Assembly: GCA_018669845.1 (NCBI GenBank)
Contig: JABHSO010000199.1
Coordinates: forward strand, 4,945-68,944
Direction: 5' to 3'
DNA length: 64,000 bases
Origin: Gammaproteobacteria bacterium
GTDB taxonomy: Bacteria > Pseudomonadota > Gammaproteobacteria > GCA-001735895
Both the position numbers and the translations under genes were made by a program. Each line of letters opens with the position of its first letter. Positions within the stretch are counted from its first letter, which is position 1. The notes beneath the pieces are model-generated. The model saw nothing but the letters and a program-made list of their open reading frames with translations, was not told the origin of the DNA and did not search any database. Below are positions 45,808 to 64,000 of this stretch, one piece after another.

Positions 45808-47235
45808 TTAACCGGAGTTTTCCAGCGGTTCTGTTTCCATGAAATCTTCGATATCAACTTCTTCGTTCTCTGTGCCACAGGGATCAACCATTTGGTGCTG
45901 TTTGATGATGCGTCTCAGACGGGGTCTGGATATTCCGAGAATTTTGCAGGTTTCTCCTTTATGCCAGTTAGTGAAGTTTAATACTCTGGCAACATGAATT
46001 TTTTCCATTTCTTCAAGGCTTGTTTGAACTGGCATACCCAGGTCGCTACTTTGTTCATGTTTCTCACTGATAAATTCTGGAATCAAGTCCAGTGTGATGG
46101 TGTCAGTGGGTGACAGGGCAACAGCTTTTGTCAGTACATTTTCAAGCTCGCGCACATTGCCTGGCCAGCGATAGCTGTTGAAGGAGTTAATAACTTCCAG
46201 AGACAGTCGGCAGACAGTATTGGACATTTCCCTGTTAATTCTCCCCAGTAAAGTTTGAATCAGATCCATCAGGTCTTCTTTACGTTCCCGTAAGGGTGGA
46301 ATATTGATATTGACAACTTGCAGCCTGTAAAAAAGATCTTCTCTGAATAATCCCAGTTTTACCTTTTCCTGAAGGTCATTATTGGTTGCAGCAATAATTC
46401 GGGCATTTGAATTAATGATTTTAGTGCCGCCCACGGGAATGTATTCTTTTTCCTGCAGTACGCGTAATAATTTTGCCTGGATTGCAGGTGATAGCTCACC
46501 CACTTCATCCAGAAAGAGGGTGCCATTTTCAGCCATGGCAAACTTGCCCATGTGTTTGTTGATGGCTCCAGTAAAAGCACCTTTTTCATGTCCAAATAAA
46601 TCGGACTCCAGCAGGCTTTCGACTAATGCAGCACAGTTTACCGCTACATAAGGTCCATCGGCACGATTGCTTGATTCGTGAATTGCCTTGGCGACCAACT
46701 CTTTACCAGTACCACTTTCACCCGTGACCAGGACGTTAATCGGTTTGTTTGCGATTAAACCGATAGTTTTATAAATCTCTCGCATCGCGCTGCTGTGACC
46801 GGCCATGCGATTTTGGTTATTCTGGGTTTTGTTGCTATCTTCTTCTGGAATCGACAGGTTGGTGTTTTCTTCGTTAGACCTGATTAACGTCCGCTCTACG
46901 GCCTGATCCAGTTCGTTGATATCGACCGGTTTATGTATGTAATCATCGGCACCATTTTGCATGGCAGCGATGGTTGTTTCCATATCATGATAGGCGGTGA
47001 TCATGATAATAGGGGTGCCGGGCACAACTTCCCGGAAATCGGGCAAGCTTTCAAGTCCTGATTTATTGGGCATCTGGTTATCGAGTATGATCAGGTCGAT
47101 TTCATTTGATGCAGCGGCCAGTAACCCATCATTGACACTATGGGCGGTGATTACATGATGAGACATACTGCTATAGTGCAATTGCAATGTTCGACATATA
47201 GCGATGTCATCATCAATAATCAGTAGTGTACTCAT
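45808..47235 (-). CDS. sigma-54-dependent response regulator (NtrC family)
   Basis: REC domain, AAA+ domain with Walker A GESGTGKE and the GAFTGA sigma-54 contact loop, and a C-terminal Fis-type HTH. Confidence 0.9.
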   Translation of the reverse strand: MSTLLIIDDDIAICRTLQLHYSSMSHHVITAHSVNDGLLAAASNEIDLIILDNQMPNKSGLESLPDFREVVPGTPIIMITAYHDMETTIAAMQNGADDYIHKPVDINELDQAVERTLIRSNEENTNLSIPEEDSNKTQNNQNRMAGHSSAMREIYKTIGLIANKPINVLVTGESGTGKELVAKAIHESSNRADGPYVAVNCAALVESLLESDLFGHEKGAFTGAINKHMGKFAMAENGTLFLDEVGELSPAIQAKLLRVLQEKEYIPVGGTKIINSNARIIAATNNDLQEKVKLGLFREDLFYRLQVVNINIPPLRERKEDLMDLIQTLLGRINREMSNTVCRLSLEVINSFNSYRWPGNVRELENVLTKAVALSPTDTITLDLIPEFISEKHEQSSDLGMPVQTSLEEMEKIHVARVLNFTNWHKGETCKILGISRPRLRRIIKQHQMVDPCGTENEEVDIEDFMETEPLENSG

Positions 47236-47290: not shown

Positions 47291-50233
47291 TCATTGCGCT
47301 GGATCAATATTTAATTTAACTATAGCCGTAGTGCCTTCATTTTCTCCGGCCTGTAACTGCATACTGCCTTGCTGTAATTCTATAAATCGTTTTGCAATAG
47401 CGAGTCCAAGCCCAGTACCTTTGGCTCGACTGGTATAAAAAGGCTCAAACAATTCATCAACCTTATCATTATCGATTCCACAACCATTATCCTGAATGGT
47501 TATTTTTATATAGGAATTTGATTCAGTGAGGTCTAATTGAACGGTAATATTTATAACAGGTGTTACATCATGCAGTGTTTCTACTGACTGCATGGCGTTT
47601 GTTAACAGGTTAGATATGATCTGACGCAGTTTTCTTGAGTCAGCATTGATAATTGGCAAACCTTTTTCGTACCAGGTATTAATTTTAGCGTTAAATGAAT
47701 CAATGTCTTTCTGAACAAGTCCTATGCTGTGTTCAACCACTTTCTTAATCTCTACCCATTCGAGCTTAACGGCATCCGGGCGGGAATAACTCATTAAATC
47801 TTCCAGTATTTCTTCCATATAAAGTACTTGTTCGAGTGCTATCTGATTTATTTCAACAGCGTCATCATGGCTGATTTTGTTAGATTGTTTTTGAAAAATC
47901 TGTAAGCCCATTTTGATGGATGAAAGTGGGTTACGTAAATCATGGGCAATCATATTAGCCATTTTGCCAACGGTATTGAGAGCCTGGTTACGGCTTATTT
48001 CGTCATTACGTTGTAGCAGTTCCGTTTCCAGTTCTATGCGTGCGGTTAAATCAATAATGGCTGAGATATTTAATTTTCCTTCAAGCGTAGGGGCAGAGCT
48101 GAAACCTACTTCAACGGGAAACATTTCTCCTGACTTTTTATAAGCCAGGAAATCCATGCTATTGGTTGAATTTATAGCTGAATTGTCCAGTGTGTTTTGT
48201 TTTTGTGCTATCAACTGTTTGGATTCTGTATCATCAGGAATGATGATGTTGATTGCCTGACCTACCAGCTCTTCTTCTTTATAGCCATACAACTGTTGCA
48301 GGGTATCATTAGCGAGTAAAATTGCTCCGCTAGAGTCAGTCATGACCATCGCAACAGGTGCTGAATTGAAACAATGTTTAAAACGTTCTTCCAGCATTTT
48401 TTGTTCAGTAATATCTTCTTTGACGGCCAGAAAATGAGTAATTTCACCTTCCGGGTTTCGAATGCCAGAAATAGATGCTGATTCCCAGTAAAGCTCGCCA
48501 TTCTTTTTCCGGTTATGAAAAATTCCTCGCCAGGTTTTACCCTTTCTTACCGTGTTCCATAATCTAGAATAATCTTCTGGGCTTGTTTCACCCGATTTAA
48601 GTACACGGGGATTAAGTCCTTTAATATCATCGAGTTTGTAACCGGTTAAATGTTCAAATTTTGGGTTTATATATTCAATTTTGCCATGTTTATCCGTTAA
48701 CATGACAGAAGCAGGGCTTTGTTCTACTGCTTCAGAAAGGTGGCGAATTTTTATTTCGTTTTCACGATACTGGGTAATATCTTCACCCATAAATATCAGC
48801 CCAATTAAATTACCTTCGGTATCTGTCATCGAAGTGTCATGCCAGCGAATCAGATATTCTCGACCAACTTTATCCTGTAGCCAGCTTTCATGAGTGGATG
48901 TGCTTTTATTATCATCTTTAGACTGCTGGAATATTTTGGCGCAGGTATTTTTATAACGGTTAACAACTAGAGTTTCTATCCAGTTTTTGCCGATTAACTG
49001 ATTTCTTTTCCAGCCTAGTAAATTAAGTAGAGAATCGTTACAGAATGAAATGTTTCCCTGCAGATCAACTGCTAAAACGTTTAACTCAATAGATTCCAGA
49101 ACTTTTCTAAAGTGCTGCTCAAACTCTACCTGTATTTCTGCTATTTGATGATTCACTCTTAAGCGAGCAATGATATGTGTACCTATTAGAAACAATGTGA
49201 AAATAACCAGGTAAAAAAACATATTGTTTCGTACAAATATTTTAGGCAGGCTACTCAATTCGCTCGGTGAAATATGTGCGATCAGGTTCCATGGATGATT
49301 TAGGTATTCGAGTCTGGTCTGGCTCTGGTCATATTCTTTGCCCAAACCGGTAATCTCCAGTCCGGGGTATACTGTTGAATAGCTGAATAAGCCATTAGGT
49401 GTTTCAAACTGACCGGACTGATTGCTGGATACCTGTTTCCATTCTTTCTCAAAATCTGTTGCAAAACTTTGTTCCTGGCCAAGCATGAAACCCCATTCAA
49501 GATCACGATTATGGTGACTCAACCAGTAACCGTCATGATTCAGTAACATGACATTTTCTGAGATATTTGAGGTTGCCGTGCGAAAATTATTAAGCAAACG
49601 ATTACCCAGATAATTGAGGATTAGAACACCGACTTTGGACCCTTTGGAGTTGAAAACAGGCGTACCAAATCGAATGACAGGTTTTAGTGGAATTTGGATT
49701 TTCCCGTGTTCTACATTCAGGTCAAAAGGAGAAATATATATTTCATTACGTTTTAACTGGAAGCTTTCCTTAAAGTAATATCTATTTATCTTGTTTTGTA
49801 GACGGTCTTTTTCGACAATGATGGATTGCCCATTTTGATTGTTTATTCGAATTATTTCCTGACCATTGATATCGATGAATCGAATATGGTCATACACAAT
49901 TTTTTTATCTGAAAATAATTGAAAATCATTGGCTAAAATTGTTAGGTTAGTATCATTTAGCTGATCAAAATAACCGTGTAATTCGGCCTGGCGAGCCAGA
50001 AAATTAACATCAGACTGGATATTTGAAAGCTCAGTTACAATGCTGGTTTTACCGAGTTCCAAATTTAATAACTGTTGGCTATTGCGTTGGTTACTGGTGG
50101 TAGATATATAAATACTGTAGTGAATGGAAATAATAGTCAGAAGTATGATTGTGCAGATCAACGCATACCACAGGCTTTGCTGTAGTATTCTCTGGTTTTT
50201 GCTTAAATGGTGATCAGGGCTATGGCTTATCAT
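47291..50233 (-). CDS. sensor histidine kinase: periplasmic Cache-like domain, three PAS domains, HisKA-HATPase
   Basis: Two TM segments flank a periplasmic region of about 300 aa. Repeated PAS blocks. H-box MIAHDLRNPLSSI. G-boxes DNGCGI and GTGLGLAI. Confidence 0.85.
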   Translation of the reverse strand: MISHSPDHHLSKNQRILQQSLWYALICTIILLTIISIHYSIYISTTSNQRNSQQLLNLELGKTSIVTELSNIQSDVNFLARQAELHGYFDQLNDTNLTILANDFQLFSDKKIVYDHIRFIDINGQEIIRINNQNGQSIIVEKDRLQNKINRYYFKESFQLKRNEIYISPFDLNVEHGKIQIPLKPVIRFGTPVFNSKGSKVGVLILNYLGNRLLNNFRTATSNISENVMLLNHDGYWLSHHNRDLEWGFMLGQEQSFATDFEKEWKQVSSNQSGQFETPNGLFSYSTVYPGLEITGLGKEYDQSQTRLEYLNHPWNLIAHISPSELSSLPKIFVRNNMFFYLVIFTLFLIGTHIIARLRVNHQIAEIQVEFEQHFRKVLESIELNVLAVDLQGNISFCNDSLLNLLGWKRNQLIGKNWIETLVVNRYKNTCAKIFQQSKDDNKSTSTHESWLQDKVGREYLIRWHDTSMTDTEGNLIGLIFMGEDITQYRENEIKIRHLSEAVEQSPASVMLTDKHGKIEYINPKFEHLTGYKLDDIKGLNPRVLKSGETSPEDYSRLWNTVRKGKTWRGIFHNRKKNGELYWESASISGIRNPEGEITHFLAVKEDITEQKMLEERFKHCFNSAPVAMVMTDSSGAILLANDTLQQLYGYKEEELVGQAINIIIPDDTESKQLIAQKQNTLDNSAINSTNSMDFLAYKKSGEMFPVEVGFSSAPTLEGKLNISAIIDLTARIELETELLQRNDEISRNQALNTVGKMANMIAHDLRNPLSSIKMGLQIFQKQSNKISHDDAVEINQIALEQVLYMEEILEDLMSYSRPDAVKLEWVEIKKVVEHSIGLVQKDIDSFNAKINTWYEKGLPIINADSRKLRQIISNLLTNAMQSVETLHDVTPVINITVQLDLTESNSYIKITIQDNGCGIDNDKVDELFEPFYTSRAKGTGLGLAIAKRFIELQQGSMQLQAGENEGTTAIVKLNIDPAQ

Positions 50234-53421: not shown

Positions 53422-55548
53422 TTAAGCATTATTCCTCGGATCATCTGGATCCAGGTGAAATTGCTTGCTTTGGCTCCATTTGCCTTTAATGGCTTCGACT
53501 ATTTCCAGGGTAATTTCAGTTTTGTTGTTTTGGTTCGCCCAGGTTTCTATCTCATGCACTAATATGCCTCTCACCATGTCCGGGGCATTGGCAATGCTGT
53601 CTCTGGCATCTTGTTGCCAGTCGAGAGTTTCAACGACTTTAGCGGAGCCTTTCTGGAAAGTTTCCAGAGTAGACTTAATGAACTCTTTGTCTATTGACGG
53701 TAAGCCCATTTTACTGGCGATTGTTTCCATTGCATTAACGGTCATGTCTCGGCAGTAACCTTCAGGAACATTGTTTAATAATTTTTTACTGCCTTGTAGC
53801 CATTCTACTGTTGAAGCTGTTTCTTCCTGTTCCAGAGTCATTCCTGCAAACGGGCATTTACTGGCTTTTTTCGGAGCTGGCTTTTCCCCGCTTTTTACCT
53901 GTTGTTCCATGGCCAGACGAGATATTTCCAGACCCTTTTCGGCTACTTCGAGAGATATGCTGGTGATGTTGTTGTCAGTGGCATAACTTTCAATATTTCT
54001 TTTTGCCGCATCTCGCATAAATCCTTCGGGTGCACGCATCAGTCTGGCTATGGCAGCTGTTTCCCAACGTAAGTGTTCATTGTTTTGCTGTTGAACAAAG
54101 GTTTTAATATGTTGTGTGTCGACCTGAAAGGTTTTATCGGCACGGGCTTTTTTCTCTGCCCGACCTTTAATATTCTCTCTTAATGATGGGTCAGTTATTG
54201 ATTGTAATAACTCTTCTGCTTCACCTGTCCAGGTCATGGGTTTCGTAGTGACAGAAGTTTTAAGCTCACCACGGTCAGCAGCTTCGACGATTTCCTGTAT
54301 GGCATTTTCTGCATGACCTGGCATCAGCTCGGCTGTGGCGGCTTCTACAATACTTTCGGTGATGACGGTATGACCTTTTTCCTGGGCATAGCGTAATATC
54401 GCCATTTTGGCCATAGGGCGGACAAAAACGGGGACTTTTAACATACGTTTCTCTGCTTCAACTGACCAGGACGTGGTTGCCGCAGCGATTCTTTCAATAC
54501 GGGGTTGATGCTCCTGCATGCCGAGCAAAATGGAGCAATTGATATTGCGCAATAAATTTTCGGCATTGCCGCCTATATCCAGTTCCGGATCGGCGTGTAT
54601 CCCCAGTTTTCCAATAATCAGTAATGATGCATTGACCTCGGCTACATATTTTTCAATAGCATCGTAGGCTTTACCATCGAGTAATTTAGTGTCAATGCTA
54701 ATGCCATAATCTTCAGCAATGGATTCAGCAACATCAAGATGTCCCTGATAAATTTTAGCCAGACCTGAATCGATAATGTCTTCGTGCAGTTTTTCCTGTT
54801 CCTTGAATTTGAAAACCTTTCCGGCTTCTTCTGATAGTACGTCGGCAATTTTATTAAAGGCGACATAGTGATAATAAGGATCGAAGGTTGAAATAACCTT
54901 GAGTTCTACGTTCCATTGTTGTGATAGTGAAAATGCGCTGAGCAGGGCACCATAGGATTTTCTGGAGCCATCGATTGCAACGACGATGGGACCTTTACTG
55001 ATTAATTTTTGTGGCTGCTTAATGACCAGTGTATCAATATTTGTTCTGCGCACTGTCCTGTCACAAACGGTACCTATCCGGCTTCCTTCTATAGCACCGA
55101 CACCAATAGAACCTAAAATCAGCAGATCATAATCACCTTTGTTGGCTTCATTCACTAAAGCGCGGTAGTTTTTTCCTTCGAGAGATGAACGGTAAAATTC
55201 TATGCTCTCCAGGTGACACTGTTTATCAATTTGATCCAGATAAGATTCGGTGATGATCGACAAGCCCCGGGTGATCAAGTCATCATGAACTTCGCGTTGG
55301 TGTTCCAGTTCCTGTTCAACTCTATATTGTTCGGGTAAACCACCTTCCATTTGACGAAAACGTATATCATGCATTTTGGCTGCGTAGGCATGAGTTCCCG
55401 TTATTTTACTGCCCCAGGCTTTTGCCAGCTGGACTGATTCCACTATGGCCTGGTTAGAATGATCGGATGAATCTACAGCTACCAGAATAGACTGGTATCG
55501 GGTTAATGGGTCGAGGGATTCATCTTGTTGAGGTGCTGTAGCCGTCAT
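53422..55548 (-). CDS. two universal-stress-protein (Usp) domains followed by five PCP_red-like (BchB C-terminal) modules
   Basis: Usp-like blocks at ILVAVDSSDHS...LLILGS and IVVAIDGSRKS...LLIIGK. Five repeats begin at W361, W440, W495, W583 and W644 with the pattern W-x2-(E/D)-A-x3-L-x3-P-x3-R. Confidence 0.75.
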   Translation of the reverse strand: MTATAPQQDESLDPLTRYQSILVAVDSSDHSNQAIVESVQLAKAWGSKITGTHAYAAKMHDIRFRQMEGGLPEQYRVEQELEHQREVHDDLITRGLSIITESYLDQIDKQCHLESIEFYRSSLEGKNYRALVNEANKGDYDLLILGSIGVGAIEGSRIGTVCDRTVRRTNIDTLVIKQPQKLISKGPIVVAIDGSRKSYGALLSAFSLSQQWNVELKVISTFDPYYHYVAFNKIADVLSEEAGKVFKFKEQEKLHEDIIDSGLAKIYQGHLDVAESIAEDYGISIDTKLLDGKAYDAIEKYVAEVNASLLIIGKLGIHADPELDIGGNAENLLRNINCSILLGMQEHQPRIERIAAATTSWSVEAEKRMLKVPVFVRPMAKMAILRYAQEKGHTVITESIVEAATAELMPGHAENAIQEIVEAADRGELKTSVTTKPMTWTGEAEELLQSITDPSLRENIKGRAEKKARADKTFQVDTQHIKTFVQQQNNEHLRWETAAIARLMRAPEGFMRDAAKRNIESYATDNNITSISLEVAEKGLEISRLAMEQQVKSGEKPAPKKASKCPFAGMTLEQEETASTVEWLQGSKKLLNNVPEGYCRDMTVNAMETIASKMGLPSIDKEFIKSTLETFQKGSAKVVETLDWQQDARDSIANAPDMVRGILVHEIETWANQNNKTEITLEIVEAIKGKWSQSKQFHLDPDDPRNNA

Positions 55549-55590
55549 AGAATTGCTTATCCAGTTCAGGGGATTGATTAAACCTGGCTA

Positions 55591-55710
55591 TTAACCAAAT
55601 AAAACCCAGTATCCAAAAAGATAGGTAATTACCAGAATATTGATTGCAGCACCGGCAAAAACAAAATAATCAAAACCTGTCAGGTTCTGTAACCACTTAA
55701 ATTGAGTCAT
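55591..55710 (-). CDS. possible 39-aa single-TM peptide
   Basis: MTQFKWLQNLTGFDYFVFAGAAINILVITYLFGYWVLFG, located 42 nt upstream of the Usp/PCP_red gene. No clear Shine-Dalgarno sequence. Below the ORF-track cut-off. Confidence 0.25.
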   Translation of the reverse strand: MTQFKWLQNLTGFDYFVFAGAAINILVITYLFGYWVLFG

Positions 55711-55726
55711 AGAGATAAATATATTT

Positions 55727-55796
55727 TTACCACGAAGTACACGAAGAGCACGAAGAAAATATTGGTGAATAGTTAAATATTTTTCTTCGTGTCTTC
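55727..55796. repeat. REP-like family B with an inverted arm
   Basis: ttaccacgaagtacacgaagagcacgaagaaaa (three tandem CACGAAG sub-units) and the inverted ttcttcgtgtcttc at 55783-55796. Confidence 0.8.
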
Positions 55797-55816
55797 AGTA
55801 TATTTCGAACCTGGTC

Positions 55817-56557
55817 TTATTTCTTTTTAAACATAAAATCAACAGTTTGGGAATCTCCCCCTGCTATTGTTGCTTTACCTTTTTGAGTTCCGAGAGTTCC
55901 GTGGAAAGCTCTTACTTTATATTTTCCGGCTGGAATATTGTCAATGGTGTAACTTCCATCGTCAGCTACTTGTGCGTAGTAAGGGTTTTTTGCAACGAAT
56001 ACAAAACCGTGCATGAAATCATGGGCGTCACATTCGATTTTCATGCCCACACCACGTTTAAGTTTGATTTTTTTGTTGATGGTGCCTTTATCGGGTTGAC
56101 TGATATTCATTACAGTCTTTTTCGCTTTACCGATAATTTCATAGCTGTGGATATTATGCAGTACGGGATCTTCATTGATGATGGCCGCATTGCCTTCGTT
56201 GTGCATGATTTGCATGTAAGGCAGAAATTCACAACCTTGCTGTAAAATTTTAGAGTCTGAATTCGCCTCATTAAATGCTTTACCTTGCTTTACTTTATCC
56301 AGGTAAACAACGACGTCAGTTAAAGCTCCGCCGTTAACTCTTACGTAATCTATTTCGCGGTTACCCGTTCCACAAACGTCGTTATCTTTTGAAATTTTGA
56401 ATACCAAAGGAGAGGGATCTTTACCCGTGAATGATACTTTACCGGAAATGCTTCCTCCGTTGGCAACGTCAACAACTTTATATTTTGCAGCCAGTACAGC
56501 CGGGCTAGTGCTTATGGCCAAAGTGAGGCCTGCGATTATAGATAGATTTTTAAACAT
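55817..56557 (-). CDS. periplasmic amicyanin-like type-1 copper (cupredoxin) protein with flanking beta-sandwich domains
   Basis: Signal peptide ending VLA-AK. Copper-ligand contexts PVLHNIHSY and IECDAHDFMHG (C-x2-H-x2-M) parallel amicyanin MPHNVHF and HCTPHPFM. C-terminal DDGSYTIDNIPAGKYKVRAF is a carboxypeptidase-regulatory-like fold. Confidence 0.65.
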   Translation of the reverse strand: MFKNLSIIAGLTLAISTSPAVLAAKYKVVDVANGGSISGKVSFTGKDPSPLVFKISKDNDVCGTGNREIDYVRVNGGALTDVVVYLDKVKQGKAFNEANSDSKILQQGCEFLPYMQIMHNEGNAAIINEDPVLHNIHSYEIIGKAKKTVMNISQPDKGTINKKIKLKRGVGMKIECDAHDFMHGFVFVAKNPYYAQVADDGSYTIDNIPAGKYKVRAFHGTLGTQKGKATIAGGDSQTVDFMFKKK

Positions 56558-56590
56558 ATGTTTTCACCTTAAGTTTTACAAATTTTAGTT

Positions 56591-59026
56591 TTATGATGCT
56601 TCTGCTAGTGGAACAGTTCGGTACATTTCTTCAAGCATTTCAATAGCAAATCGTCTTTCATAGCTTGTGGGTAAGTCAGAGAGTAACTCAACCAACCTTG
56701 CCGTACCCTGAACAGGTTCGATGGCTTTTAGAACCAATGCCATGTCACGTGTTCTGCCACCCTGATTATTAAAAGGGCATTGAACAATTTGCTCTATAGC
56801 TTTCGCCATTAATTCCTGTTGCTGATTAATTTCTTCTGCCATGAGACAGAGTTTAAGATTGTTTACTGCACTATAACGAACGCCTGGATCTTTGTCCTGA
56901 AGCAGGTCGATTAAAACATTGACCCATTCGGTCAGGTTTATTGGCATTTCAGGAACATGTGCATTTTTAAGCAGTTCGTCGCCGTTTAACTCTAGCTCGG
57001 TAATGGATTCTATTGCCTGGATGCGAATCGCTGTGCGATTATGCTCGAAGGCGGTCATTAAAATGGGTATGGCAGCCCTGTTATGAATTGTGCCCAGAGC
57101 CTTGATGCAAGCAAGTTTCAAATCCCATTGCTCATTATGGAATTGGGTGATCAGGCCGCCGTAAGCATATTCGATACCGCCAATTTTGGGATTATCCATG
57201 GCTATTTGTGCAATAGAATCGGCAGCATAGGTACTAAGCTTTATGTCAGCTGAGTTCAGTGCTGTGACCAGGCTATCAACAGTCCGTTTTGCTTTGTCTT
57301 CATTCAAATGGTCAGGCAGTTTTGCAAGTATTTTTGCAGCCAGATGTTGTACATCCTGGGCCACGGAGATTTCTTCATTTTTGTTTTTAAACAGCCATTC
57401 ACTTTTAGTGACATTATCCTGTACAAGATTATGAAATTCCTGCATCTCGGGATCTTCTTCGGTTTCTGGCTCTGCCTGATTTTCCTGTTGCTGCTGGTTT
57501 TGTTCAACAAACAGACTATCCTGCATGATTGATTCCAGAGTCGATAATGCTTCAGCCGGTGCAGCTTCTTCTACTGATTCATCCTCAGTTGCAGATTGTT
57601 CTGTATCTTCTGATGTGTTTTCAGTCTGCTCGGGCAATAAAGAAGATACTTCAATTTCCAGAACCACACGGCCATTTAAAGTCTCGTTGATGATATCTAT
57701 CGGTGTTTTAACTTGAGTCGAATCTAACTCTGTATGTTCGATACTTTTTTCCATGTCCATCAGTGCCTGCAAGGTTGTAAGCCTGATGGGTTGATCGTTA
57801 TGATTAATCAAACGGGTCATTATTCGAGATATATTGACGTTCCATCTGGATATCTGTGCCAAAGTACTGATGCAGGTTCTAAGGATTTTTTCTGAGATTT
57901 TAGGTCTTGATATAAGTTGTATCAGGCTCGCTTCTGAAGATTCTTTATTCGTTAATTTCAGTAATAAAGGTATTGCAGCGAGGATCACTATTTCATTTTG
58001 GTCATTAAATGCTGTAGTGATATGGTCCAGCAATTCTTCATCACTGAGATTGACGTCTTCAGCCTGTAGAGATTGTAAATAGGTCGATCTAACATCTGCG
58101 TCTGGATCGTTAAGTAAACGCTCATTTCCCTTGTCATCGGTTTTTTCCGATTTAACACCAGCACTCAGAGAGTTATAAGCAATAATTGCGGCTTGACGTA
58201 CTTTTTCAGAACGATCTTTTTTTAATAACTCAATGGCTGGCAGGTATTTGGTTGCCTTTCTTGTCACCATGGCCTGCAGTGCATAAAGACGAACATCTTC
58301 AGATGCATCGGTAAAAGCTGAGGATAATGCTTTTAATGATTTTTTAGTGGAGGAAAATGATAATGCGTAAGCGGCTCTTCTTCGTGTAAGAGCAGATGCT
58401 TCTTTCAAAAGCCCAGTGACTCTTTGTTCTCCCTCTTCTCCAATATTGACCAGTGCATTGAGAATGACATGTTCAATATCGAGAACATCATCACTTTCGA
58501 GTAAATTCATTAATACCTGAGTGGCCGGCTGTGCTTTCATTTTACCCAGAGCCAGTACAGCTTCTTTCTGCATATCCCACCAGTCATCCCAGTCTTCATT
58601 GCTATCAATAATCATATCTTCAGGATGATGCTCGGCAATTTCTATCAGAATGGGGATACTGGTAGGGCTTTTTATATCACCCAGTGCTTTAACGATAGCT
58701 GTTTTCAACTCTCCATCAGGGTCATTCTTTAATGACTCTATCAATTGGGGCACGACATGAGTGGCATTTAACTTACCCAGTGCTTCTGCTGCATCGATAC
58801 AGACATCAATATCTTCATCCCGTAATTTTATGACAAGATCATTAATGGCTTCAGTTGCACCAATGGTGCCTAGAGCGCGGCTGGCATTACATTTATCGAC
58901 TTCATCGCCATTGTTTAACAAATCTCGTAAGCTGTGAACGACATTAGCTCTTGACTCATTTGACGTTTCGATAGAACTATCTGAATTTGTTGTATCGATA
59001 GAGCTATCTGTATCTGCTGTTAACAC
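56591..59026 (-). CDS. large cytoplasmic HEAT-repeat (PBS-lyase-type) protein with an acidic central linker
   Basis: GTG start. Recurrent ~30-aa repeats of the type D-x-D-V-R-x-x-A-x-x-A-L-G. Acidic Glu/Gln-rich insert near residues 455-530. Confidence 0.7.
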   Translation of the reverse strand: MLTADTDSSIDTTNSDSSIETSNESRANVVHSLRDLLNNGDEVDKCNASRALGTIGATEAINDLVIKLRDEDIDVCIDAAEALGKLNATHVVPQLIESLKNDPDGELKTAIVKALGDIKSPTSIPILIEIAEHHPEDMIIDSNEDWDDWWDMQKEAVLALGKMKAQPATQVLMNLLESDDVLDIEHVILNALVNIGEEGEQRVTGLLKEASALTRRRAAYALSFSSTKKSLKALSSAFTDASEDVRLYALQAMVTRKATKYLPAIELLKKDRSEKVRQAAIIAYNSLSAGVKSEKTDDKGNERLLNDPDADVRSTYLQSLQAEDVNLSDEELLDHITTAFNDQNEIVILAAIPLLLKLTNKESSEASLIQLISRPKISEKILRTCISTLAQISRWNVNISRIMTRLINHNDQPIRLTTLQALMDMEKSIEHTELDSTQVKTPIDIINETLNGRVVLEIEVSSLLPEQTENTSEDTEQSATEDESVEEAAPAEALSTLESIMQDSLFVEQNQQQQENQAEPETEEDPEMQEFHNLVQDNVTKSEWLFKNKNEEISVAQDVQHLAAKILAKLPDHLNEDKAKRTVDSLVTALNSADIKLSTYAADSIAQIAMDNPKIGGIEYAYGGLITQFHNEQWDLKLACIKALGTIHNRAAIPILMTAFEHNRTAIRIQAIESITELELNGDELLKNAHVPEMPINLTEWVNVLIDLLQDKDPGVRYSAVNNLKLCLMAEEINQQQELMAKAIEQIVQCPFNNQGGRTRDMALVLKAIEPVQGTARLVELLSDLPTSYERRFAIEMLEEMYRTVPLAEAS

Positions 59027-59060
59027 AATGTAATACCTGAATTAGAATTTAGCCATATTA

Positions 59061-59076
59061 AGCATAAATAGTGCCA
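59061..59076 (-). promoter_or_regulatory. sigma-54 (-24/-12) promoter for the HEAT-repeat gene string
   Basis: The minus strand reads TGGCAC TATTT ATGCT (consensus TGGCAC-N5-TTGCW). The -12 GC lies about 35 nt upstream of the GTG at 59026. Confidence 0.65.
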
Positions 59077-59164
59077 ATAAAAAGTTGTTACTAATTAACT
59101 CATTGAAAGATAGGATATTAATTGCATTTTACAGGTTCGGTTTTGCGTTGGCGTATGTGTTCAA

Positions 59165-59279
59165 TTGAATGAATTGTTCTATTCATTTTGAACGTAAATT
59201 ACAGTTGAACAAAACGTTCAATTTATAAGGGTGGCATGATTTGATCAGCTGAATTGGGCATTTTGAACATTTCGTTAAT
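59165..59279. promoter_or_regulatory. three 6-N5-6 inverted repeats (TTGAAC-N5-GTTCAA), candidate enhancer-binding-protein sites
   Basis: TTGAATgaattGTTCTA (59165-59181), a perfect TTGAACaaaacGTTCAA (59205-59221) and TTGAACatttcGTTAAT (59263-59279). All lie between the two divergent sigma-54 promoters. Confidence 0.55.
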
Positions 59280-59413
59280 TATTTCTTCTTATCGTGCTTT
59301 ATCTGAATTGTTATAAACTAAACCCCTTGATGTAGTATGTTTATTACTAAGGTATTGATTTAATGAATAAATTAACACATTAAGTGATTTATAAATGTAT
59401 TTATGTTTAGTAT

Positions 59414-59430
59414 TGGCAAGAAAATTGCAT
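59414..59430 (+). promoter_or_regulatory. sigma-54 (-24/-12) promoter for the bd-like/cytochrome c operon
   Basis: TGGCAA GAAAA TTGCAT: near-consensus spacing and elements, 31 nt upstream of the ATG at 59461. Confidence 0.7.
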
Positions 59431-59460
59431 TTGGCGGTATAAACATTATTAGGAAACGTT

Positions 59461-59622
59461 ATGTCTGATATAGAAAACGAAGCGCAAACAACTGGGCAGA
59501 ATGCTGGTGTTAATGAATCAGTAACCTGGGGTCCCAAATTGTTTTATGGCGTTCTTATCGCTGTATTAGTGTTTTTCTGGTGGATGGTGATTTATCCACA
59601 CGGTGTAGCTCCAACTCATTAA
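59461..59622 (+). CDS. 53-aa single-TM peptide, first gene of the bd-like operon
   Basis: AGGAAA Shine-Dalgarno 5 nt before the ATG. Translation MSDIENEAQTTGQNAGVNESVTWGPKLFYGVLIAVLVFFWWMVIYPHGVAPTH. Below the ORF-track cut-off. Confidence 0.55.
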   Translation: MSDIENEAQTTGQNAGVNESVTWGPKLFYGVLIAVLVFFWWMVIYPHGVAPTH

Positions 59623-59770
59623 GGCGATCTGGTTCAGATAATTATAAATAAATGAACACATGAGCAATAAATGGGACTTTTAGATCCGGTATTGAATAAC
59701 TAAGGTCCCAATTTAATCATTTTTTAACGCTGATATCGCTTAAAAGTATGCAACAGAAGGTACAAACAAA

Positions 59771-59905
59771 ATGAATATGAAAAATCCTCTGATTAACTGG
59801 GTTCTCGCTATTGTGATAGTCGTAGCAGTATTTTATGGGCTAAACCACGGGGTGATGTCGATGCAGGGCTTGCCATTAAATGTTGATTTAACGCCTGTTC
59901 AATAA
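59771..59905 (+). CDS. 44-aa single-TM peptide
   Basis: MNMKNPLINWVLAIVIVVAVFYGLNHGVMSMQGLPLNVDLTPVQ. GAAGG upstream. Ends 20 nt before the CydA-like gene. Confidence 0.5.
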   Translation: MNMKNPLINWVLAIVIVVAVFYGLNHGVMSMQGLPLNVDLTPVQ

Positions 59906-59925
59906 GGGTCACCTAAGGTAACACT

Positions 59926-61812
59926 ATGAATTCAGATATATTAAATAAGAATAAAATCAGGGTTATTCTGAGCCTGTTATTTGCTCTGATGTTGGCAGGC
60001 ATGATTTCTGTGTCGGTATCGAATGAGGTTTATGCCGCTTCAGAAATAACAAGTATCGAAGATAGAATCCGCTCTGTAGATACGGGTGGTCTGTCGGCTG
60101 ATCAATTTAAAGTCGAACCGAAGTCTGTTGGTTTTCCTCCTTTTGCAGCACCAAAATTAAAAGCCAAAGATTACTCTAAAATTATGGGTGTAAGCAGTCG
60201 TTCAATAGTCTGGGTTGTGGCTCAGATGCACCTGTTTTTTGCTGCATTCGTACTGGCCGTTCCACTTTTTGTACTGGTCATTGAATGGATTGGTGCGAAG
60301 TCGGGCGATGAGCGTTATGACGATATGGCGCATGAATGCATGAAAATCAGTATGACTGCATTTTCTATTACGGCTATTTTTGGTGGTTTACTGGCCTTTG
60401 CATTGTTCATTCTGTATCCGCAGTTTATGGGATATATGATGAATGTTTTTAATACTCAGGTGCTGGTGTATGCACTGTTATTTTTTGCCGAGAGTTTTTT
60501 CCTTTACCTCTATTATTACAGCTGGTATGCCTACCGCTGGGGCAACAAAAAATGGGTACATCTGACTCTGGGTTTAATGCTGAATGTAGTTGGAACGACT
60601 ATTTTATTACTGGCTAATGCCTGGGTCACTTTCATGATGGCTCCTACCGGAGTGGATGATGCGGGTGCGGTTACCGGTGGTATCTGGGAAATAATGAGAG
60701 GGCCTCTCTGGAATCCCATCAACTTACATCGATTCATTGCTAATATTGCTTTTGGTGGTGCTGTTATCGGTGCATATGCTGCCTACAAATTTCTTTCTGC
60801 AACTGATCTTAAAGCCAGGGCGCATTATGACTGGATGGGCTACACCGCCAATTTCATTGCTATTTTAGCATTCTTACCGTTGCCTTTTGCCGGTTACTGG
60901 TTGATGGCTGAAATTTATGCTTATTCCCAGCAAATGGGTATTACTGCGATGGGTGGAATACTGGCCTGGTTGTTTATTGTACAGGCAGTGTTGATTGGCA
61001 CTATTTTACTGGCTGGTAATTATTACCTGTGGTCGGGCATGTCGAGAACGAAAGGGTCTGAGCGATATACCTGGATGATCAAATATATCGCGATGGTGCT
61101 AGTAACCTGCTTTCTGATCTGGGTGACACCTCACACGTTGATTTTGAGCGCTTCGGAAATGAAATTGCTGGGCGGTAGCCATCATCATTTGCTTGGACCC
61201 CTGGGCATTATGCCGGCTAAAAATATTGCGGTTAATCTGATGTTAATTTTTACTTTTCTTTCTTTTCAATTATACCGGAGATCAGATAAAGAAATCACTG
61301 TGGGTTGGGCAGGTTTTGGTAATGCATTGATGGTGAGCATTTATGTTGTTGCAATTGTTAATGTCATTTTTGCTGGTGTGTATTACGGCTATTTCACCAA
61401 TACGGTTTATAAGGTGGGTTCCAGTGTGGCCCAGGTCGTTTCAACGTTGGTGGTTATTATTGCAGGTGTTGTTATCGATACCTATATGTTTAAGGGTGCG
61501 AAAAAGTTGCCGTCTGAATGGGGAAAAGTTTCTAACCGGGCTCAATATGCATTATTTGCATTACCTGTTGCTTTCACCTGGTTGATGGCACTGATGGGTT
61601 ATGTACGTTCTTCGGTCAGAACCAACTGGCATGTGTACACGGTGATGAAAGATAACTCTCCAGATAATTATATTCCGGCCATAGGCTTTGCAGGCAATAT
61701 GATGACTATCGTGACGGTGTTGTTCCTTATATTTGTATTGTTTATTTTCTGGGTGGCATCTTTAAGTGATACAAAGCAGCCTAAACCTGATTTTCTGACG
61801 GGAGATAAATAA
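59926..61812 (+). CDS. cytochrome bd oxidase subunit I (CydA)-superfamily membrane protein, atypical (no CydB partner)
   Basis: Blocks collinear with E. coli CydA as I recall it: AQMHLFFAAFVLAVPLF (vs MYHFLFVPLTLG), LLFFAESFFLYLYYYSW (vs MAFFLESTFVGLFFFGW), LLLANAWVTFMMAPTG (vs WILVANGWMQNP), WNPINLHRFIANIAFGG (vs LNPVAQVKFVHTVASG). It also has an N-terminal signal-like peptide and extra C-terminal TM helices. Confidence 0.75.
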   Translation: MNSDILNKNKIRVILSLLFALMLAGMISVSVSNEVYAASEITSIEDRIRSVDTGGLSADQFKVEPKSVGFPPFAAPKLKAKDYSKIMGVSSRSIVWVVAQMHLFFAAFVLAVPLFVLVIEWIGAKSGDERYDDMAHECMKISMTAFSITAIFGGLLAFALFILYPQFMGYMMNVFNTQVLVYALLFFAESFFLYLYYYSWYAYRWGNKKWVHLTLGLMLNVVGTTILLLANAWVTFMMAPTGVDDAGAVTGGIWEIMRGPLWNPINLHRFIANIAFGGAVIGAYAAYKFLSATDLKARAHYDWMGYTANFIAILAFLPLPFAGYWLMAEIYAYSQQMGITAMGGILAWLFIVQAVLIGTILLAGNYYLWSGMSRTKGSERYTWMIKYIAMVLVTCFLIWVTPHTLILSASEMKLLGGSHHHLLGPLGIMPAKNIAVNLMLIFTFLSFQLYRRSDKEITVGWAGFGNALMVSIYVVAIVNVIFAGVYYGYFTNTVYKVGSSVAQVVSTLVVIIAGVVIDTYMFKGAKKLPSEWGKVSNRAQYALFALPVAFTWLMALMGYVRSSVRTNWHVYTVMKDNSPDNYIPAIGFAGNMMTIVTVLFLIFVLFIFWVASLSDTKQPKPDFLTGDK

Positions 61813-62678
61813 TGAATCTCAGCATCAGAAAAGTCCAGTCCGGTGCAGTTTTATTCAATGTTTTACTGTTCAGTTTTTCTTTAACCCTGGTGTTTACGCT
61901 GGTTGCTAATTTACTGCCCCAGGTTGAAGGTGAAGCACCGGTCGAAGTAGAAATAGATCTGAGTGCAATGACTATGGATGGTTTTGTGTCACTCGGAGAA
62001 AGTATTTTTTCCGGTAAAGGAACCTGTACGTTATGCCATAACAACATGGGACGGGCGCCTGATATTTTACAGTTAAATATGGTTGCTACTTCAACCGAGC
62101 GCATGGCTGATGAACGTTATAAGGGAGCCGCTGCTTCTGTTGAAGACTACATGCGCGAATCAATGCTCGATCCTAGTTTGTATGTAGTAAAAGGTTTTGG
62201 GCAGAAGGGCAGCAACGATACTGTTTCACCCATGCCGACGGCAAATAAAGCGCCTATCCTATTAACCGATGTTGAAATGGATGCTGTTATTGCTTTTATG
62301 CAAGCTAAAGATGGCAATGATGTCACCGTTGCCTTACCGGAAGGTTTGCCTGAAAAATCAGCAGAAGAACAGGCAGGGGCTTCTGCTGTAGCAGCTGTAC
62401 AAGGACCGGCTGAAACGGCCGAAGAAGCTTTAGGAAAATTTACCTGTACAGCATGTCATGCAGTAGCTGGTAGTGAATCAATGGTGGGTCCAGAGTTAAA
62501 TGCAGTCGGTAATCGGCTGGATAAAGATAAAATCCGTGAGAGTATTCTTAACCCTGAAGCGGTGATTGCTGAGGGTTTTGATGCAGGCATGATGCCGGCA
62601 GATTTTGCAAAGAAAATGACAATAAGCGAGCTGGACATGGTTACCGAGTACTTACTCAATCAAAAGGGAGGGCAATAA
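61812..62678 (+). CDS. membrane-anchored dihaem cytochrome c
   Basis: N-terminal TM helix and two CxxCH motifs (CTLCH, CTACH). The ATG overlaps the CydA-like stop by 1 nt. Confidence 0.8.
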   Translation: MNLSIRKVQSGAVLFNVLLFSFSLTLVFTLVANLLPQVEGEAPVEVEIDLSAMTMDGFVSLGESIFSGKGTCTLCHNNMGRAPDILQLNMVATSTERMADERYKGAAASVEDYMRESMLDPSLYVVKGFGQKGSNDTVSPMPTANKAPILLTDVEMDAVIAFMQAKDGNDVTVALPEGLPEKSAEEQAGASAVAAVQGPAETAEEALGKFTCTACHAVAGSESMVGPELNAVGNRLDKDKIRESILNPEAVIAEGFDAGMMPADFAKKMTISELDMVTEYLLNQKGGQ

Positions 62679-62680
62679 TC

Positions 62681-64000
62681 ATGCGTATCCCTGCGTTATT
62701 ACAGGCCGTTCTGGTTATCGTCATTGCCTATCTGATTTTAGATAATGCATTTCCACCTGTTTTACCTTTAACACTATTGATTCAATATATGCTGATCACT
62801 GTGGTCGGTGTGTTGTTGTACTTTTCTTTTGATGATGATCGTTGGGCTGAGTTTTTATCACCGATTCAAGCTGTTTTACGTAATGATAATCAATGGCTCT
62901 TACGTGGATTTTTCCTGGTAGCTATTCCAGTTCTTGTCGGCTGGGTTACTTTTCAGATGGTCAAACCATCACTCGATTCGCCTATCGAACTGCGTCAGGT
63001 ACATCCGGCACCACCCTCCAGTCTGAACGTTTTTAATAAAAAATATGATTTAACTAAACTGGAAAACCCTATTCGTGCTGAAGTTATAGAAAAATACCCA
63101 ACCGATAAAGATGGCGCCATGCAGGTTTATAATGACGGCGTGTTAGCGGGCAGGGATGTTTATTATCAGAACTGTTTTTATTGTCATGGTGATTTACTCG
63201 ATGGCACAGGACATTTTGCCGATGGTTTTACCAATCCTTTGCCGATCAATTTTCAGGATGTTGGAACGATAGCGCAGTTACAGGAAGCCTTTTTATTCTG
63301 GCGTATCTCTACCGGTGGACCTGGATTGCCAAAAGAAGGAACACCATGGAATTCAGCTATGCCAGTCTGGCATGAATACCTGAATGAAGATGATATATGG
63401 AATGTAATTACTTTCCTGTATGACTATGTTGGGCAGGTACCCAGAATCTGGGATCAGAAACAGTCAAAAATTGCTTCTGCCATTAAAGATGATCTGGTTT
63501 CTAAACGTGCCACTATGATGGGTAAGGAATTGTATGATTTACGTTGTACTGTTTGTCATGGCGATCAGGGCATGGCCGATGGTGTTGCAGCAGAGCGTAT
63601 GTATCCAAAACCACGTGATTTTACGTTGGGATTATTTAAGTACAAAACCACACCGGGCTCGCTGCCAGCGAGTGACGATGACCTGTTCAATACCATTAAA
63701 CATGGATTGATGGCGACAGGCATGCCAGGCTGGAGCAGTTTATTGTCAGATGAACAGATAAAAAGTCTGATACCCGTACTCAAAGGTTTTGATATTGCAT
63801 CGACCTGGCCCCCTGAAGATGCTGATGATGATGCTTTCGATGACGATGGACGATATACCAAAGATGATTTTATTTCGATTACCGAACGTGAACCATTTGA
63901 AGGTGCCGTCGATTACACTCCTGAGTCATTAACTCGAGGCAAAGAAGTTTTTGATAAAGCCTGTAAAGAATGTCACGGAGCTACAGGGCGAGGCAATATT
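62681..64000 (+). CDS. membrane-anchored multihaem cytochrome c (at least three haems; 3' end beyond the window)
   Basis: GGGAGGG Shine-Dalgarno before the ATG at 62681. Open frame to the window edge (not in the ORF track because there is no stop). About three N-terminal TM helices, then CFYCH, CTVCH and CKECH. Confidence 0.8.
   Translation, partial: MRIPALLQAVLVIVIAYLILDNAFPPVLPLTLLIQYMLITVVGVLLYFSFDDDRWAEFLSPIQAVLRNDNQWLLRGFFLVAIPVLVGWVTFQMVKPSLDSPIELRQVHPAPPSSLNVFNKKYDLTKLENPIRAEVIEKYPTDKDGAMQVYNDGVLAGRDVYYQNCFYCHGDLLDGTGHFADGFTNPLPINFQDVGTIAQLQEAFLFWRISTGGPGLPKEGTPWNSAMPVWHEYLNEDDIWNVITFLYDYVGQVPRIWDQKQSKIASAIKDDLVSKRATMMGKELYDLRCTVCHGDQGMADGVAAERMYPKPRDFTLGLFKYKTTPGSLPASDDDLFNTIKHGLMATGMPGWSSLLSDEQIKSLIPVLKGFDIASTWPPEDADDDAFDDDGRYTKDDFISITEREPFEGAVDYTPESLTRGKEVFDKACKECHGATGRGNI

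Follow-up and report, generated by a model that had tools for sequence, protein, structure and literature searches.

A predicted bidirectional sigma-54 control region between a bd-like (OR-N2) oxidase operon and a HEAT-repeat gene string in an uncultured marine gammaproteobacterium

We analysed a 64,000-nt stretch of DNA (the window) from an uncultured marine bacterium of the Gammaproteobacteria (contig JABHSO010000199.1, assembly GCA_018669845.1), in which a 434-bp intergenic gap (positions 59027–59460) separates two divergent respiratory gene clusters: a bd-like (OR-N2) operon on the plus strand and a string of genes starting with a HEAT-repeat gene on the minus strand. The gap is probably (with a probability of roughly 0.78) a bidirectional sigma-54 control region, on which a local NtrC-type regulator would act through three palindromic boxes with the assistance of IHF. 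The OR-N2 oxidase operon and the HEAT/PCP_red/radical-SAM haem-type string, both uncharacterised, thus appear to form one predicted regulon. The mechanism itself is ordinary and found in textbooks; the novelty lies in the motif, in the regulator family and in the genes that they join.

Promoters and enhancer boxes in the intergenic gap

The gap contains one candidate -24/-12 sigma-54 promoter on each strand. P(+) (TGGCAAGAAAATTGCAT, 59414–59430, plus strand) lies 30 nt from the ATG at 59461, and P(-) (TGGCACTATTTATGCT, 59076–59061, minus strand) lies 34 nt from the GTG at 59026; the GG-N10-GC signature is exact in both. Counted as matches out of 12 to TGGCACG-N4-TTGCW, P(+) scores 11 and P(-) scores 10. 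On the two strands of the 4.54-Mb genome assembly no site reaches 12/12, only 19 sites including P(+) reach 11/12, and 195 sites score exactly 10/12, as P(-) does. The chance expectation for one such site per strand in a gap of 434 bp is about 1e-4. A loose degenerate sigma-54 scan of the window returned 12 matches compared to 13.8 expected, with no enrichment, and the case for the two promoters therefore rests on score, position and conservation. Taking the C of GC as -12, transcription would start at about 59440 from P(+) and at about 59050 from P(-), with predicted leaders of 21 nt and 24 nt, respectively.

Between the two promoters are three 17-bp dyads. Box 1 (TTGAATGAATTGTTCTA, 59165–59181) matches the TTGAAC/GTTCAA half-sites at 10 of 12 positions, with a strong left half and a degenerate right half, and lies at -123 from P(-) and -267 from P(+). 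Box 2 (TTGAACAAAACGTTCAA, 59205–59221) is a perfect dyad (12/12) at -163 from P(-) and -227 from P(+), and box 3 (TTGAACATTTCGTTAAT, 59263–59279; 10/12) lies at -169 from P(+) and -221 from P(-). Both promoters therefore have at least two dyads 80–250 bp upstream of the -24/-12 element, as expected for the enhancer of an enhancer-binding protein. The spacings are 40 bp between boxes 1 and 2 and 58 bp between boxes 2 and 3.

Such boxes are concentrated in the window, where 13 with at most two mismatches are found compared to 4.6 expected, a count reached in none of 100 shuffled sequences. Genome-wide there is a single perfect box, 41 with at most one mismatch and 506 with at most two; this locus alone has three boxes inside 150 bp, and two more boxes would fall by chance within 120 bp on either side of a box with a probability of about 3.5e-4. 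With a position weight matrix built from boxes of relatives alone, box 2 ranks first in the genome (22.3 bits), box 1 third (17.7 bits) and box 3 17th (14.9 bits). The consensus of 34 pooled boxes is TTGAACGAATCGTTCAA (19 bits), that is, a 17-bp palindrome TTGAACGAaTCGTTCAA with 8-1-8 geometry, so that the apparent spacer belongs to the site. The original prediction, made from the sequence of the window, had placed the promoters and the three boxes at exactly these coordinates and with these match counts. Its description of the boxes as 6-N5-6 inverted repeats is refined by the 8-1-8 geometry. An additional TTGAAC half-site is present between boxes 1 and 2 (59188–59193) and is common only to the closest relative (G001; handles beginning with G, C and L denote genomes, contigs and loci).

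Phylogenetic footprint

Searching with the bd-like protein as query, we obtained 79 loci, five of which (L002–L005 and L046) have in common the gap between the HEAT-repeat gene and the bd-like operon. A sixth orthologous gap came from G056 and further ones (L144, L155) from a pattern scan of metagenomes. We used alignments of 6, 7 and 9 sequences with a mean identity of 57–61%, the largest of which includes two metagenome contigs. The metagenome scan for two-box patterns gave 34 matches, five of them true orthologous regions; the other 29, which had neither the cluster genes nor sigma-54 promoters on both flanks, were unrelated repeats or chance matches and were rejected.

Conservation in the gap is concentrated in eight islands: P(-), IHF-like site 1, box 1, box 2, a central element, box 3, IHF-like site 2 and P(+). 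By our mapping of the columns, 55 of the 59 invariant intergenic columns of the 7-sequence alignment fall within the 124 bp of these eight elements (binomial probability about 1e-25). Of the other four, one is in the Shine–Dalgarno sequence (AGG/GAGG, 9–11 nt 5' of the GTG of the HEAT gene in all seven aligned sequences) and two are 1 bp outside an element. The same eight islands persist in the 9-sequence alignment. Across the nine orthologous regions the columns TGGCA.G..A.TTGCA of P(+) are invariant between flanks that are not conserved, and TGGCA-N7-TGC of P(-) is invariant between diverged flanks. The box spacings are free of gaps throughout the orthologous alignment. In the nine regions TTGAA..GT of box 1 is invariant, both half-sites of box 2 are conserved, and TTGAAC together with the T of GTT is invariant in box 3, where CGTT is invariant in the first six.

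Judging from the sequence, the IHF-like sites and the central element are also part of the control region, in addition to the promoters and boxes. IHF-like site 1 (TAACTCATTGAAA, 59096–59108) has one mismatch to YAANNNNTTGATW and is centred at about -52 from P(-); its TAA and TGA are invariant in nine sequences while the flanks drift. IHF-like site 2 (TAAGGTATTGATT, 59348–59360), centred at about -86 from P(+), matches YAANNNNTTGATW perfectly and has a core that is invariant in nine sequences. Conserved matches to YAANNNNTTGAW thus stand between enhancer and promoter on both sides, and ihfA is present in the genome with a score above the cut-off; the assignment of both sites to IHF is by consensus match. 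Elsewhere, IHF-like sites are found at about -94 in G012, and 5' of the sigma-54 promoters of cytochrome c peroxidase (CCP) operons in G006 and on contig C7 of the genome analysed here.

The central element (GGCATGATTTGATCA / GCATGATTTGATCA, 59234–59247) is found between boxes 2 and 3, halfway from one promoter to the other. It contains a GATC and a partial dyad TGAT-N3-ATCA, and is conserved in eight of the nine orthologous regions, being absent in G056; near boxes in the unidirectional contexts that were read it was not seen. We considered a third sigma-54 promoter at this place (TGGCATGATTTGATCA, 59232–59247) and rejected it, as it has TC instead of GC at -12 and the relatives have TAGCAT or GGGAT at -24; the missing GC means that the central element is not a sigma-54 promoter. 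Readings of the element as an IHF, FNR or ArcA site, compared by eye with the consensus sequences, fail in most relatives.

The regulator and its association with the boxes

The candidate activator is an NtrC-family response regulator of 475 aa encoded on the minus strand (45808–47235). According to Pfam it consists of a REC domain (with D52), an AAA+ domain and a C-terminal HTH_8 domain, and it carries the Walker motifs and the GAFTGA loop expected of a cognate sigma-54 activator. The adjacent gene on the same strand (47291–50233) encodes a sensor histidine kinase of 980 aa with a periplasmic Cache-like sensor, three PAS domains, HisKA and HATPase (Pfam); it is presumed to be the partner of the regulator, and the synteny of the two genes is kept in relatives. 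The C-terminal part of the kinase has AtoS as its best NCBIfam match, below the cut-off. The regulator likewise stays below every NCBIfam equivalog cut-off (ntrC 413/559, AtoC 398/714 and ZraR 347/760 bits), and is therefore regarded as an unnamed member of the NtrC family. The genome encodes rpoN (PF04552, 233.8 bits, contig C121) and 15 enhancer-binding proteins (PF00158). One of these is on this contig, namely the regulator just described, which bears out the earlier claim that it is the only sigma-54 activator in the window.

Orthologs of the regulator are found in G001 (93% identity), G002 (78%), G003 (77%) and G056 (73%), in every case on the contig of the boxed gap and at a distance of about 12 kb. 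The G004 contig ends within the kinase ortholog, which leaves the regulator unassembled, and in G005 the contig ends before the position of the regulator; an ortholog about 12 kb from the boxes is thus present in all relatives whose contig reaches that far. Conversely, five genomes (G007, G008, G036, G038 and G054) have the bd-like operon without boxes or a sigma-54 promoter, and no ortholog of the regulator was found in them (the best matches are at about 40%, or there is no match at E ≤ 1e-120). In some 60 bd-like loci that are more distant, no box accompanied by a sigma-54 match lies upstream of the gene.

Regulators of the family that are less similar (54–63% identity) adjoin the same boxes, and there the sigma-54 promoters precede other respiratory genes. 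Across the family the recognition helix ILGISRPRLRR is kept (as ILG(I/V)SRPRLRR in the members with 54–63% identity), and it differs in paralogs. In G012 and G021, kinase and regulator genes are followed by a pair of boxes with a spacing of 40 bp, by a GG-N10-GC promoter and by a gene for a multihaem cytochrome c; in G012 the boxes are at -166 and -206, with an IHF-like site between them and the promoter. G006 has two boxes with a spacing of 30 bp, an IHF-like site and the promoter TGGCCCGGTTATTGCT in front of two di-haem peroxidase genes. In G396 a perfect box and a sigma-54 promoter precede peroxidase, peroxidase, Rieske and AioA-like genes (idrP1P2BA-like). G196 (L120, 3700–17700) has four boxed sigma-54 promoters within 15 kb, with a box-pair spacing of 42 bp: they precede an operon of radical-SAM/PCP_red, kinase and regulator genes, a ThiF/rhodanese gene, a pair of porin and MoeA genes, and, on the minus strand, a unit without an open reading frame (ORF) of at least 110 aa. 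In the same genome moaA lies directly 3' of the regulator gene, and the regulon there seems to include the supply of molybdenum cofactor.

Around nine regulators of the family there are 11 boxes with at most one mismatch in 174 kb, compared to 1.5 expected (Poisson probability 6e-7), and sites and activator thus occur together across genomes. Co-occurrence across genomes and gene contexts, together with the footprint, supports the original assignment of the boxes to the local activator, and the main points of the proposed control of both operons from one shared enhancer hold on the same grounds.

Proposed mechanism and alternative explanations

What is observed are the elements in the sequence, how well they are conserved and that they occur together with the regulator family. 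From the established biology of sigma-54 and its enhancer-binding proteins we infer binding of the local regulator to the three boxes, control by phosphorylation, DNA looping and the transcription starts predicted above. Sigma-54 RNA polymerase would wait in a closed complex at both P(-) and P(+), with regulator dimers bound to the three TTGAACGAaTCGTTCAA dyads. Boxes 1 and 2, spaced by 40 bp, may constitute the core enhancer for both promoters and box 3 an added site favouring P(+); the two are read as the core because the layout matches that of the unidirectional promoter of G012, where, as here, two distal dyads are followed by an IHF-like site (at -50 to -95) and then by the -24/-12 promoter. 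The Cache/PAS kinase would phosphorylate D52 of the regulator and thereby lead to assembly of the AAA+ ring, and three dimer sites could nucleate one hexamer. IHF on each side would bend the DNA so that the ring could reach either polymerase through its GAFTGA loops, after which hydrolysis of ATP would open the promoter. As no ring can engage both polymerases at once, the two promoters may alternate. Our leading guess for the signal is iodate or a by-product of iodate, because the regulator family travels with iodate-reductase-like clusters.

Several observations speak against this proposal. The -12 element of P(-) is ATGCT rather than TTGCW. The 58-bp spacing sets box 3 on the helical face opposite box 2, for which we have no explanation. 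There are 14 other enhancer-binding proteins encoded in the genome, and the co-occurrence of boxes and regulator is confounded by co-transfer of islands and by shared ancestry. The RNA data, taken from the Logan assembled contigs of nine metatranscriptome runs, are short, low in depth, unstranded and patchy; at this locus they consist of short contigs with a depth of 1–5 over most genes and no callable 5' end, and further searching brought up no better run. Some RNA contigs lie in the gap (59150–59335) or start 5' of P(+) (59343–59531 and 59400–59599), which fits DNA carry-over or other promoters. The RNA depth is about 1x over the HEAT gene compared to 13–54x over the next gene, which encodes a 246-aa protein (55817–56557).

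The sigma-54 promoters could be real and the boxes bound by another protein, be it a repressor or activator of the classical type or any of the remaining 14 enhancer-binding proteins, while the local regulator acts elsewhere, for example on the central GCATGATTTGATCA element. The number of candidate genes in the genome allows for this, the assignment of the boxes is an argument from sequence, and the conserved element between boxes 2 and 3 is left unexplained. Yet in the gene contexts looked at no DNA-binding gene other than the regulator family recurs beside the boxes, conservation of the recognition helix coincides exactly with that of the motif, and the central element has the patchy distribution described above (missing in G056 and from the unidirectional boxes that were read); we consider binding by another protein unlikely. 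The low match of P(-), its -12 element and the step in RNA depth behind the HEAT gene would also agree with a situation where only P(+) works and P(-) is weak or vestigial, the HEAT string being transcribed from a sigma-70 promoter or from an internal start near 56655, where RNA contigs end in three runs (56653–56658). This seems improbable given that TGGCA-N7-TGC of P(-) has remained invariant in nine regions with diverged flanks, that a -12 element of the ATGCT type also stands behind the boxes of G012 and G021, and that IHF-like site 1 is conserved on the P(-) side only.

A more radical possibility is that the -24/-12 matches and the dyads are conserved for some other reason, such as sigma-70 promoters with operators, and that sigma-54 is not involved. 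The AT-rich gap does contain sigma-70-like hexamers (59020–59048 on the plus strand and 59307–59278 on the minus strand), and RNA contigs cover parts of it. The sigma-70-like matches are nevertheless fewer than in shuffled sequence (36 vs 48.7), the two sites are, in our reading of the alignment, not conserved beyond the closest relative, the invariant columns reproduce the positions of the sigma-54 consensus exactly, and a GG-N10-GC site follows every set of boxes in relatives, all of which makes this explanation very improbable. The bidirectional sigma-54 control region with the local regulator on its boxes is thus the reading that we prefer.

Comparison with known systems

In Salmonella and E. 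coli one two-component sigma-54 activator serves the divergent sigma-54 promoters of zraP and zraSR (PMC4987338). The present proposal is similar in that one activator is assigned to divergent sigma-54 promoters. ZraR (formerly HydG) has its binding sites in the shared gap and exerts feedback on its own genes. Here the regulator falls far from the ZraR model (347 bits vs the 760-bit cut-off), motif and target genes differ, and unlike zraSR the kinase and regulator genes are the last in a 13-kb string instead of the first behind the promoter, for which reason feedback is unproven here.

At glnAp2 the NtrC enhancer consists of TGCACC-N5-GGTGCA sites upstream of a -24/-12 promoter. The present system shares with it the 17-bp dyads, the presence of several sites 100–250 bp upstream and the REC-AAA+-HTH_8 architecture of the regulator, whose nearest NCBIfam model is ntrC. 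It differs in the score of the regulator (413 vs 559 bits), in the half-site TTGAACGA and the 40-bp core spacing, and in having an enhancer that is common to two promoters with an IHF-like site on each side.

AioR, the sigma-54 activator of the arsenite oxidase genes aioBA, recognizes the site GTTN10AAC, for example GTTCGGATTTCCGAAC (PMC5335332). Common to AioXSR and the system described here are a sigma-54 two-component system, a molybdoenzyme of the AioA/IdrA group and a dyad that contains GTTC and GAAC. Unlike in the AioR site, the half-sites here are in the opposite order (GAAC...GTTC), no gene for a periplasmic binding protein of the AioX type was seen here, and the targets include the bd-like oxidase and the haem-type module. 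In the iodate respirer Azoarcus sp. DN11, atoS/atoC-like genes, which are only named, are located upstream of idrABP1P2, and the same paper gives no promoter, site or regulon for the pair (PMC10149662). The likeness, which is one of description, lies in a sigma-54 regulator and kinase beside iodate reductase genes. By NCBIfam rank, AtoS is the best match of our kinase and AtoC the second of our regulator after NtrC, all below the cut-off.

Gene context

The first gene behind P(-) encodes a HEAT-repeat protein (56591–59026, minus strand, with a GTG start at 59026; Pfam). By Pfam assignments the minus-strand string, running from 59026 to 45808, continues with genes for the 246-aa protein, a Usp + PCP_red protein, a radical SAM/SPASM + PCP_red protein, an amine-oxidase-fold (HemY-like) protein and a 138-aa protein, and ends with the Cache-like/PAS histidine kinase and the REC-AAA+-HTH_8 regulator. 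Behind P(+), the bd-like (OR-N2) operon (59461–64000, plus strand) starts with two small ORFs, the first of which has its ATG at 59461, followed by genes for a cytochrome bd-I-like protein (59926–61812), a cytochrome c (61812–62678) and a multihaem cytochrome c, this last gene extending past the window end.

Autoregulation of the kinase and regulator genes, which the original prediction had suggested, is no more than possible. The regulator gene is the last of the string, about 12 kb downstream of P(-) and on the same strand. The string is broken by gaps of 268 bp and 121 bp, the first of which contains a terminator-like stem (55689–55671), and the depth of RNA varies strongly along it. Kinase and regulator genes are upstream of the boxes in G012 and G021, and downstream of a boxed promoter in G196.

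The 268-bp gap, which follows the gene for the 246-aa protein, also contains repeated hairpins of the CACGAAG type (55720–55800). RNA contigs break at these hairpins, and their loose ends enter other sequences, as with a dispersed repeat. In four metatranscriptomes the 246-aa gene (within 55384–56703) is 10–50 times more abundant than the HEAT gene, which suggests an internal start or promoter, processing, or stabilisation by the downstream hairpins.

Relationship to iodate-reductase-like genes

The matrix scan of the genome found no other high-scoring box with a correctly oriented sigma-54 site, except for one (C161:16543) that lies inside an ORF of 1087 aa and was rejected as a chance match. 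Outside the window, contig C7 of the same genome contains an idrP1P2BA-like cluster (C7:19451–25063) composed of two di-haem peroxidases, a Rieske protein and an AioA-like molybdoenzyme. The scores (arsenite_ox_L 388/359, arsenite_ox_S 116/96 and CCP_MauG twice) correspond to a composition of the idrABP1P2 type, and the large subunit, which is 75% identical to that of the directly boxed cluster of G396, is an IdrA-like candidate for an iodate-reductase-like enzyme. Upstream of the cluster (the whole region being C7:19230–25063, or L124, 4231–10064) are a sigma-54 promoter (TGGCCTGAATAATGCA) and an IHF-like site, together with two variant boxes of the TTGAAA type (TTGAAAGAAATGATCTA and TTGAAAGGTTTATACAC) that are 41 bp apart, all of them conserved in G001–G004. 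The matrix gives the variant boxes only 3.8 and 2.8 bits, and because of these poor scores the promoter is treated as a lead and is not counted in the regulon. No gene for an enhancer-binding protein is present on contig C7.

Among 401 gammaproteobacterial genomes (one draw), ten contain the regulator family, 15 an IdrA-like enzyme and nine both (Fisher p = 7e-14, a value that ignores shared ancestry and island transfer). In seven of the nine the two are on one contig within about 25 kb. The IdrA-like loci of genomes without the regulator family (G441, G359, G141, G219, G381 and G024) have no box cluster, and only G141 and G024 have isolated box matches with two mismatches; the family is therefore not a universal regulator of idr genes. 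The idr-like cluster of G219 (L141, 16009–16197) has a divergent pair of 11/12 sigma-54 promoters without TTGAAC boxes or a member of the family, and a different activator family may serve the idr-like enzyme there.

The idrABP1P2 genes constitute the iodate reductase cluster, whose flanks are poorly conserved (PMC8692401), and no regulator or cis-element of idr genes is described in PMC8692401, PMC10149662 or PMC13455634. The bd-like oxidase is probably under a two-component regulator that is associated with iodate-reductase-like genes. One could go further and speculate, with considerable doubt, that the kinase and regulator act as master switch for an extended island of iodate respiration, respond to iodate or to one of its by-products and co-induce three modules through TTGAACGAaTCGTTCAA enhancers: the IdrAB-like reductase with its peroxidases, the OR-N2 bd-like oxidase with c-type cytochromes, and the HEAT/Usp-PCP_red/radical-SAM haem-type genes. 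If so, the OR-N2 enzyme would have a role in iodate respiration, for instance in disposing of O2 or H2O2 arising from HIO, or in feeding electrons. The 434-bp region and one regulator offer a handle on the inducing signal in bacteria of oxygen-minimum zones.

A physical link between the OR-N2 and idr systems is seen in the bd-like loci themselves. Two idrP-like peroxidase genes directly follow the bd-like (OR-N2) operon in 10 of the 79 loci (L006, L010, L016–L018, L024, L025, L046, L078 and L080) and also in L144. These loci span Gamma- and Alphaproteobacteria, including Roseovarius and an Aestuariirhabdus isolate.

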